Shown here piece by piece: positions 8,247 to 9,423 of a DNA stretch of 64,000 bases (its first letter is position 1; every line of letters starts with the position of its first letter). The DNA is from Escherichia coli (lineage in GTDB: Bacteria; Pseudomonadota; Gammaproteobacteria; Enterobacterales; Enterobacteriaceae), in NCBI RefSeq assembly GCF_024700885.2, contig NZ_CP117016.1, one strand, 5' to 3'. Both the position numbers and the translations under genes were made by a program. The notes under the pieces were generated by a model. The model was not told the origin of the DNA and searched no databases. It saw only the letters and a list, made by a program, of their open reading frames with translations.

Positions 8247-8462
8247 ATGAAATCCATGGATAAGTTAACAACGGGTGTCGCCTATGGCACCTCAGCAGGT
8301 AGTGCCGGGTACTGGTTTTTACAGTTGCTCGATAAAGTCACGCCCTCACAGTGGGCGGCAATAGGTGTGCTGGGTAGTCTGGTATTTGGCCTGCTGACGT
8401 ACCTGACAAACCTTTATTTCAAGATTAAAGAAGATAAGCGCAAGGCTGCGAGAGGTGAATAA
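8247..8462 (+). CDS. Pinholin (phage 21 S21-like class II holin)
   Basis: 71 aa; dual-start motif MKSMDK; two TM segments; near-identical pattern to S21 ([17 protein letters not shown]...[10 protein letters not shown]). Confidence 0.8.
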
Positions 8463-8959
8463 TGCCTCCATCATTACGAAAAGCAGTTGCTGCTGCTATT
8501 GGTGGCGGAGCAATTGCTATAGCATCAGTGTTAATCACTGGCCCAAGTGGTGACGATGGCCTGGAAGGTGTCAGCTACATACCATACAAAGATATCGTTG
8601 GCGTATGGACTGTATGTCACGGACACACCGGAAAAGACATCATGCTCGGTAAAACGTATACCGAAGCAGAATGCAAAGCCCTCCTGAATAAAGACCTTGC
8701 CACGGTTGCCAGACAAATTAACCCGTACATCAAAGTCGATATACCGGAAACAACGCGCGGCGCTCTTTACTCGTTCGTCTATAACGTGGGCGCAGGCAAT
8801 TTCAGAACATCTACTCTTCTTCGCAAAATAAACCAGGGCGATATCAAGGGCGCATGTGACCAGCTACGTCGCTGGGCATACGCTGGCGGTAAGCAATGGA
8901 AAGGCCTGATGACTCGTCGTGAGATTGAGCGTGAGGTCTGTTTGTGGGGGCAACAATGA
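8462..8959 (+). CDS. SAR endolysin (phage 21 R21-like lysozyme)
   Basis: N-terminal Gly/Ala-rich signal-anchor-release segment ([20 protein letters not shown]); T4-lysozyme-type catalytic residues; start overlaps holin stop. Confidence 0.8.
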
Positions 8960-9423
8960 GCAGGGTAACCGCGATTATCTCCGCTCTGGTTATCTGCATC
9001 ATCGTCTGCCTGTCATGGGCTGTTAATCATTACCGTGATAATGCAATCGCCTACAAAGAACAGCGCGATAACAAGGCCAGTGAACTGGAGAAGGCGAACG
9101 CCACCATTACTGACATGCAGCAGCGCCAGCGTGATGCTGATGCACTCGATGATAAATACACGAAGGAGTTAGCTGATGCGAAAGCTGAAAATGATGCTCT
9201 TCGGCGCAAGCTTGATAATGGTGGTCGGGTGCTCGTCAAAGGAAAATGCCCTGTGCCATCCTCAGCCGAAACCTCCAGCGCCTCCGGCATGGGCAATGAT
9301 GCCACCGTCGAACTCTCTCCAGTTGCTGGACGAAACGTTCTCGGTATCCGGGACGGAATTATCCGCGACCAAACAGCACTGAGAACGCTTCAGGAATACA
9401 TCAGGACGCAATGCCTTCGATGA
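8956..9423 (+). CDS. Rz i-spanin
   Basis: [32 protein letters not shown]-terminal TM then coiled coil, closely lambda Rz-like. Confidence 0.75.
9176..9382 (+). CDS. Rz1 o-spanin, embedded in +1 frame within Rz
   Basis: Lipobox LIMVVGCSS followed by Pro-rich segment ([11 protein letters not shown]), fully nested in the Rz gene. Confidence 0.65.

Follow-up and report, generated by a model that had tools for sequence, protein, structure and literature searches.

Sequence analysis of a predicted pinholin/SAR-endolysin/spanin lysis cassette with a nested Rz1 gene in an Escherichia coli prophage

Analysis of the window (the whole 64,000-nucleotide stretch of Escherichia coli contig NZ_CP117016.1 under study) revealed four genes, S, R, Rz and Rz1, which we consider with high confidence to be a pinholin/SAR-endolysin/spanin lysis cassette in the late operon of an apparently complete lambdoid prophage. 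This identification is based on (i) the gene structure, (ii) the family membership of the encoded proteins, (iii) their near-identity to experimentally characterised proteins, and (iv) the conservation of the nested frame. The cassette type is textbook phage biology and was already known, so there is nothing biologically new in it; the original prediction, made from the same DNA without database searches, had rightly described it as established biology. The boundaries given there proved to be exact: all four open reading frames were found where it had placed them, together with each of the strings quoted from them (MKSMDK, the Gly/Ala-rich N-terminus, LIMVVGCSS and the Pro-rich core). A pseudogenised remnant was considered and rejected, since none of the four frames is interrupted and the prophage is structurally complete.

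The coordinates of the cassette, its parts and the adjacent terminator-like structures are presented in Table 1. The genes overlap at their junctions: S and R have one base in common (TAATG), and the start codon of Rz overlaps the stop codon of R (ATGA). All four proteins matched Pfam families far above the curated cut-offs (PF04971, PF00959, PF03245 and PF06085), and the PHROG matches agreed with these assignments (holin, endolysin, and two Rz-like spanins). A scan of the four proteins against NCBIfam gave no model at cut-off for any of them; the naming of S, R, Rz and Rz1 by NCBI must evidently follow rules other than NCBIfam models.

Table 1. Features of the lysis cassette and of the adjacent DNA (positions within the window)
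Feature	Position	Strand	Remarks
Terminator-like hairpin GGCCAC-GTCAG-GTGGCC with T-run	8186-8210 (hairpin 8186-8202)	+	Between the methyltransferase stop codon (8179) and S
Whole cassette	8247-9423	+	Four intact genes: S, R, Rz, Rz1
S, long product	8247-8462	+	71 aa, MKSMDK; predicted antiholin form
S, short product from Met4	8256-8462	+	68 aa, MDKL; predicted active pinholin
R, SAR endolysin (GH24 / T4-type lysozyme)	8462-8959	+	165 aa
R codons 1-30, signal-anchor-release (SAR) segment	8462-8551	+	Residue-for-residue match to R21 in 3hde
Rz, i-spanin	8956-9423	+	155 aa; N-terminal transmembrane helix, periplasmic Cys98 and Cys153
Shine-Dalgarno sequence of Rz1, AGGAG	9164-9168	+	7 nt 5' of the Rz1 ATG
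Rz1, o-spanin lipoprotein	9176-9382	+	68 aa; wholly within Rz, +1 frame
Mosaic module: Rz residues ~81-155 and Rz1 residues ~8-68	9196-9423	+	
Terminator-like hairpin, 8 pairs (6 GC), with T-run	9597-9624 (hairpin 9597-9616)	+	3' of the cassette

The predicted pinholin and SAR endolysin

The product of S belongs to Pfam family PF04971, 'Bacteriophage P21 holin S' (121 bits versus a cut-off of 26, E=2e-35), with a match spanning positions 1-63 of the 64 of the profile, and it is identical to EssD of E. coli K-12 in 71 of 71 residues. The gene contains the dual-start motif M1-K2-S3-M4, with in-frame ATG codons at 8247 and 8256, and a Shine-Dalgarno-like sequence (GAGGTG, 8236-8241) is located on its 5' side. 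An N-terminus with the same dual start was found in 15 related loci, and the records of phages Ayreon and Kati annotate S as the 68-codon form. The family match, the dual-start motif and the identity to EssD bear out the earlier assignment of this holin to the pattern of the S21 pinholin.

Judged by composition only, and on a predicted topology, both transmembrane domains (TMDs) are those expected of a pinholin: TMD1 (residues 8-28) is weakly hydrophobic (mean Kyte-Doolittle hydropathy of 0.55, 57% G/A/S/T), and TMD2 (residues 36-58; mean hydropathy of 1.50) carries the GxxxSxxxG motif (G40xxxS44xxxG48). The predicted RNA fold of positions 8205-8290 places the first AUG of S in a hairpin loop; its energy was no better than that of shuffled sequences (z=-0.47), which gives no indication of an sdi-like structure at the two starts. 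A search of the PDB with the holin returned chance matches only (E values of 0.036 or worse), and no solved pinholin structure.

The comparison with S21 itself was indirect, i.e. it was made through family PF04971, published segments of S21, and an S21-type allele (L051) which contains these segments (MDKI, YWFLQW and LDQVSPSQ; bioRxiv 2021.04.20.440580). The window protein is identical to this allele in 62 of 71 residues and retains, as K59, the lysine corresponding to K56 of S21 68. About 9 of the 71 positions differ from S21, including a W to L substitution in the aromatic patch (YWFLQW to YWFLQL), which is reported to stabilise the pores of S21 68 (bioRxiv 2021.04.20.440580). In view of these substitutions, the lysis timing of the window allele may differ from that of S21.

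R is a member of PF00959 (E=1.5e-45) and is identical in 162 of 165 residues to E. coli RrrD (PDB 4zpu) and in 160 of 165 (97%) to the phage 21 lysozyme R21 (PDB 3hde). The Glu-8aa-Asp-5aa-Thr catalytic triad is kept (E35, D44 and T50), and 57% of the residues in the hydrophobic stretch 4-31 are G, A, S or T. Since the N-terminus is identical to that of R21, the presence of a Gly/Ala-rich SAR segment in place of a cleavable signal peptide, which the original prediction had proposed, is well founded. A lack of similarity to S21 and R21, named there as grounds for abandoning the assignment, was not found; the similarity is very high. R is thus predicted to be a SAR endolysin of the R21 type, activated by release from the membrane.

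The same two genes could be read differently, as a large-hole holin accompanied by an endolysin secreted with a cleavable signal peptide, and the tripeptide A-I-A at residues 19-21 of R, as read from the translation, does bear a superficial resemblance to a signal-peptidase site. Against this reading stands the identity of R residues 1-30 to those of R21, whose segment is retained in the full-length structure (3hde chain A, 165 residues). Moreover, S falls into the two-helix class II P21 family, whereas lambda S has three helices (24/111 identity between the two), and S21 68 was unable to complement lambda S105 (PMC9636201). We therefore regard a large-hole system as highly improbable. S21 68 is known to form small pores that depolarise the membrane and cannot release a cytoplasmic endolysin (PMC9636201; bioRxiv 2021.04.20.440580). 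The homology of the window holin to this protein, and its pairing with a SAR endolysin, suggest that it is likewise a small-pore pinholin.

The nested Rz1 gene and its annotation

Rz matched PF03245 (E=3.8e-29) and PHROG 13 (E=1e-74), and its N-terminal hydrophobic stretch (residues 1-28) reaches a peak hydropathy of 2.88. The start of Rz1 is offset by 220 nt from that of Rz, which places it in the +1 frame, and its end lies 41 nt before the Rz stop codon. Rz1 therefore occupies 0.470-0.912 of the length of Rz, and a position at 0.47-0.91 of the i-spanin is within the range typical of embedded spanins (PMC6139136). The Rz1 protein matched PF06085 (75 bits versus a cut-off of 27.9, E=3.8e-21) and PHROG 3198 (E=4e-26). 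It is a predicted lipoprotein with the lipobox MVVG|C19 (within LIMVVGCSS), and its mature part contains 8 Pro in 50 residues; the Ser at position +2 is consistent with sorting to the outer membrane. The ORF map, the PF06085 match and the lipobox confirmed the earlier description of a gene for a Pro-rich lipoprotein that is contained entirely within Rz, in the +1 frame. This very Rz1 sequence has already been made public, in some sources under the name 'lysis system o-spanin lipoprotein Rz1'.

An open frame of this kind may arise by chance, in which case the cassette would consist of three genes only. Two observations point in that direction: (i) 15% of 5000 synonymous recodings of Rz yielded a +1 ATG-initiated ORF of at least 68 aa, so the length of the frame is not significant, and (ii) PGAP and three phage records leave Rz1 unannotated. 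The case for Rz1 as a gene was accordingly built on its match to the profile, its lipobox and its conservation, with length playing no part in it. No more than 19 of the 5000 recodings produced an ORF with a lipobox. The other stated ground for abandoning the original prediction, disappearance of the Rz1 frame from close relatives, was not observed: the frame, the lipobox and Cys27 were intact in all of the 80 IMG/VR loci encoding an Rz that is 90-100% identical (31 Rz1 protein variants).

The same conclusion emerged from the variability of the third-codon positions of Rz, for which 60 distinct sequences were compared. The third-codon sites were variable in 47 of 73 cases (64%) on the 5' side of the overlap and in 11 of 13 on its 3' side, but only in 16 of 68 (24%) inside the overlap (Fisher p=1.5e-6 for 16/68 versus 47/73), where the third positions of Rz are the second positions of Rz1. 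Such suppression of wobble, confined to the overlap, is the signature expected of dual coding. Together with the Shine-Dalgarno sequence located directly 5' of Rz1 (Table 1), and with its treatment in databases (SpaninDB curates the same protein as an o-spanin, and NCBI calls it Rz1), these results render a chance frame so improbable that it can hardly be taken into account, and we treat Rz1 as a genuine gene.

The nested gene is, nevertheless, seldom annotated. The 9196-9423 spanin module was present in 1731 of 5426 complete E. coli genomes, i.e. in about a third of them, and in an evenly spaced sample of the carriers Rz1 was annotated in only 1 of 54 well-covered RefSeq records, in agreement with the expectation that gene callers easily miss it. 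In this single record it was the enclosing, intact 155-aa Rz that had been omitted instead; the pipelines thus seem to call either Rz or Rz1, and never the two together within the 54-record sample. Rz1 is missing, for instance, from the PGAP annotation of strains MLI114, TW14359 and AH04, and from the records of Ayreon and Kati; in contrast, it is annotated in those of K-12 and lambda. In lambda, the studied prototype, Rz1 is essential for lysis. The practical interest of the cassette lies solely in the fact that the annotation gap under-reports a gene with such a role. The gap observed in E. coli agrees with the count of Kongari et al., in which 196 of 528 phage genomes lacked an annotation of the o-spanin (PMC6139136).

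Mosaic structure of the spanin module

Alignment with lambda Rz and Rz1, which had been recommended in the original prediction, revealed 96/156 and 28/70 identical positions, respectively, and the same architecture: (i) the +1 frame, (ii) the N-terminal TMD, (iii) equivalent periplasmic cysteines (C98 and C153 of Rz align with C99 and C152 of lambda Rz, and C27 of Rz1 with C29 of lambda Rz1), (iv) the lipobox, and (v) the PPxPPAW core. The likeness of the i-spanins is concentrated in residues 1-83 (about 85% identical to those of lambda), whereas the C-terminal 72 residues of Rz and the mature Rz1 are strongly diverged. The two systems also differ in the partners of the spanin: in lambda, the holin has three helices and the endolysin is a cytoplasmic transglycosylase; in the window, a pinholin is combined with a SAR lysozyme.

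The point of divergence could be located in the DNA. Identity to lambda Rz and to K-12 rzpD amounts to 73-100% up to about position 9195 and to 43-67% from 9196 to the end, and many megablast matches to phages terminate at window position ~9200. Thus, the exchanged unit comprises Rz residues ~81-155 and Rz1 residues ~8-68, i.e. the Rz1-pairing part of Rz plus the entire mature lipoprotein. Among 76 related loci, the spanin module was found behind an R21-like lysozyme in 49 cases, and behind a lambda-type transglycosylase with a lambda-type S in 24. The reuse of one spanin module behind either type of S/R pair is ordinary lambdoid mosaicism, and the locus illustrates how the C-terminal domain of Rz and Rz1 are exchanged as a single recombination unit and occur behind holin/endolysin pairs that are unrelated to each other.

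It follows from this mosaicism that the designation 'phage-21-type', given to the whole cassette in the earlier work, applies to S and R, and not to the C-terminal half of Rz and to Rz1, which represent the mEp460/'HK620' o-spanin family; only part of the cassette is of the phage 21 allele type. With phage 21 the window shares the holin family with its dual start, and R (160/165), in which neither the SAR segment nor the catalytic triad differs. Its o-spanin is, however, different: that of phage 21 has 60 aa and is assigned to the lambda family by its listing in Table S1 of Kongari 2018 (PMC6139136), whereas the 68-aa o-spanin of the window is a member of the HK620 family.

A close counterpart of the spanins was found in mEp460, for which the same table gives 'Lambda' as the i-spanin family and 'HK620' as the o-spanin family (PMC6139136). 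Its Rz (155 aa), Rz1 (68 aa) and the offset between them (220 nt) correspond to those of the window, and the Rz1 signal sequence and the AGGAG Shine-Dalgarno sequence are identical. The differences consist of four C-terminal positions of Rz1 and an extra gene of the YdfR family between S and R of mEp460. As far as we have found, Rz1 proteins of the HK620 type have been catalogued in the literature, and not genetically dissected.

A similar comparison was carried out for prophage DLP12 of K-12 (essD-rrrD/ybcS-rzpD/rzoD). It resembles the window in its S (71/71) and R (162/165, 98%) proteins, in the gene order, the overlapping junctions and the +1 offset of Rz1, and in the close similarity of Rz residues 1-83. 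In contrast, the C-terminal half of its Rz and RzoD are of the lambda allele, with RzoD having 60 aa against the 68 aa of the window Rz1 (29/70 identical); borD, the next gene in DLP12, is absent from the window; and DLP12 is defective, whereas the window prophage appears structurally complete. At the DNA level, the cassettes in the records of phages Ayreon, vB_EcoS-569R4 and Kati are 97-98% identical to that of the window. In the case of Ayreon the identity is 98.1% over 1501 nt, with point differences only, and the same 1501-nt region is 100% identical in E. coli strain MLI114.

Prophage context and proposed mechanism of lysis

The cassette is preceded in the prophage by a gene for a Q-like antiterminator (5049-5843) and a DNA methyltransferase gene (7127-8179), and is followed by the genes for the small and large terminase subunits (from 10239), the portal, the protease/capsid, and a full lambda-like tail set. 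The presence of Q together with terminase, portal, capsid and tail genes distinguishes this prophage from a remnant such as DLP12.

These genes also bear on the purpose which the cassette may serve. The identity of S and the 98% identity of R to the DLP12 proteins raise the question of domestication, since the DLP12 module, although carried by a defective prophage, is transcribed and modulates the production of outer-membrane vesicles (PMC7918800). By the same token, the window cassette might be a domesticated remnant, as has been proposed for DLP12, kept for cell-wall turnover or vesicle control and not for phage release. We consider this very unlikely, because all of the late functions listed above are present, including both terminase genes and the complete tail set, and because the 97-98% identical cassettes come from deposited phage genomes. 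A role in phage release is the preferred reading, and it does not conflict with a role in host maintenance: the two are compatible and not mutually exclusive.

Every step of the mechanism envisaged for the cassette is drawn from homologues (reviewed in PMC9636201 and PMC6139136). By analogy with lambda, late transcription antiterminated by Q would pass the terminator at 8186-8210 and lead to the expression of S, R, Rz and Rz1. The two S products, S71 (from Met1) acting as the antiholin and S68 (from Met4) as the pinholin, would both build up in the inner membrane, with the extra Lys2 of S71 presumably slowing the exit of TMD1. R would be exported by Sec and held inactive, tethered to the membrane by its weakly hydrophobic Gly/Ala-rich N-terminus. 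On triggering, TMD1 of the pinholin is expected to leave the bilayer, allowing the TMD2 helices to form many heptameric pores of ~2 nm. Collapse of the membrane potential through these pores would free R into the periplasm, where it would refold and degrade the murein. Rz in the inner membrane and Rz1, as a lipoprotein of the outer membrane, would be joined through their C-terminal parts into a disulfide-linked complex spanning the periplasm, and this complex, once the wall is gone, would disrupt the outer membrane by fusing both membranes.

The upstream hairpin is located 45 nt 5' of S, and the Ayreon record has a terminator at the equivalent position. Downstream, the terminator in the Ayreon record lies about 10 nt past the T-run, at the equivalent of window positions ~9624-9669. 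An Rfam scan of positions 5800-10800 detected nothing in or adjoining the cassette, and yielded two sub-threshold leader-like matches at 5906-5976.

A short ORF of 50 codons (9411-9563) was noted at the 3' end of the cassette. Its start, which is preceded by AGGA, lies 13 nt ahead of the Rz stop codon; the product has a hydrophobic N-terminus, and the frame closes before the terminator at 9597 is reached. In the PGAP annotation it is a hypothetical protein, and it corresponds to PHROG 11822 (no assigned function). The frame is open in 59 of 62 relatives. The variable sites were distributed over the three codon positions as 7/4/8, i.e. without third-position bias, and for this reason the ORF was not accepted as a gene. 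A conserved non-coding sequence, open by chance, is the more likely explanation; that the ORF represents a real fifth gene, encoding an uncharacterised small membrane protein of this cassette type, seems unlikely. Translation of such a gene would be coupled to that of Rz.

In mEp460 and Ayreon, the linear genome records terminate at the point corresponding to position 10213 of the window. The cassette accordingly occupies the right end of the chromosome of the phage, in the same way as in lambda.

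Annotation of the nested spanin pair and variants of the holin

In the sampled RefSeq records, PGAP called either the i-spanin gene Rz or the o-spanin gene Rz1, and never both together. Among these records only that of E. coli ET826 (NZ_CP100901.1) annotates Rz1; in this case, the surrounding 155-aa Rz (961–1428 of related locus L088) is intact, yet unannotated.

Comparison of related loci also revealed a variant of the holin, belonging to the same family as S of the window, but starting with MYQMEK (L038, L048, L052–L054, L063, L074, L076 and L077). These holins are encoded upstream of the same spanin as in the window. 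As in MKSMDK, Met residues occupy positions 1 and 4, but the three-residue extension carries no positive charge. If the extra charge is what turns the long form into an antiholin, the MYQMEK alleles may be differently regulated.

The region between Rz and the terminase gene

No convincing gene was found in the region of approximately 800 bp separating Rz from the small terminase gene terS (9424–10238). Conservation of this stretch in phages mEp460 and Ayreon is nevertheless ~99%, Ayreon differing from the window by an insertion of ~140 bp at about position 10060. The linear records of both phages terminate at window position 10213, i.e. 25 nt before the ATG of terS. This region is probably the genome end or packaging region.

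A small ORF overlaps the end of Rz (see table): it starts 13 nt upstream of the Rz stop codon, is preceded by AGGA, and belongs to PHROG 11822 (unknown function). Its reading frame is uninterrupted in 59 of 62 relatives. However, the variable sites among the relatives compared are distributed 7/4/8 by codon position, and thus a coding signature is absent.

Features identified besides the lysis genes
Feature	Length	Position	Strand	Evidence
N6/N4 DNA methyltransferase	350 aa	within 7127–8210	+	PF01555; PADLOC type II MTase, E=3e-152
ORF overlapping Rz end	50 codons	9411–9563	+	PGAP: hypothetical protein
Reverse transcriptase	458 aa	within 33167–35066	-	PADLOC RT_UG17, E=2e-158
SLATT-domain protein	183 aa	within 33167–35066	-	RTasSLATT, E=2e-56

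The late region upstream of S and the distal cargo genes

The methyltransferase gene is located in the late region, between the Q-like antiterminator gene and S, and is separated from S by a terminator-like hairpin (8186–8202). We speculate that, in the lysogen, this terminator might keep any transcription of the methylase gene from reaching the lysis genes, whose expression is lethal. Rfam searches produced weak, sub-threshold matches (E~0.1) to the attenuator-type leaders Trp_leader and Leu_leader at 5906–5976 (+ strand), starting ~60 nt 3' of the Q gene. In lambdoid phages, the late promoter and its early terminator are expected at such a position, just downstream of Q.

The overlapping reverse transcriptase and SLATT-domain genes form a DRT-class anti-phage defence system, carried as prophage cargo. 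The pair occupies the prophage's far end, where it adjoins a DinI-like gene and prfC.
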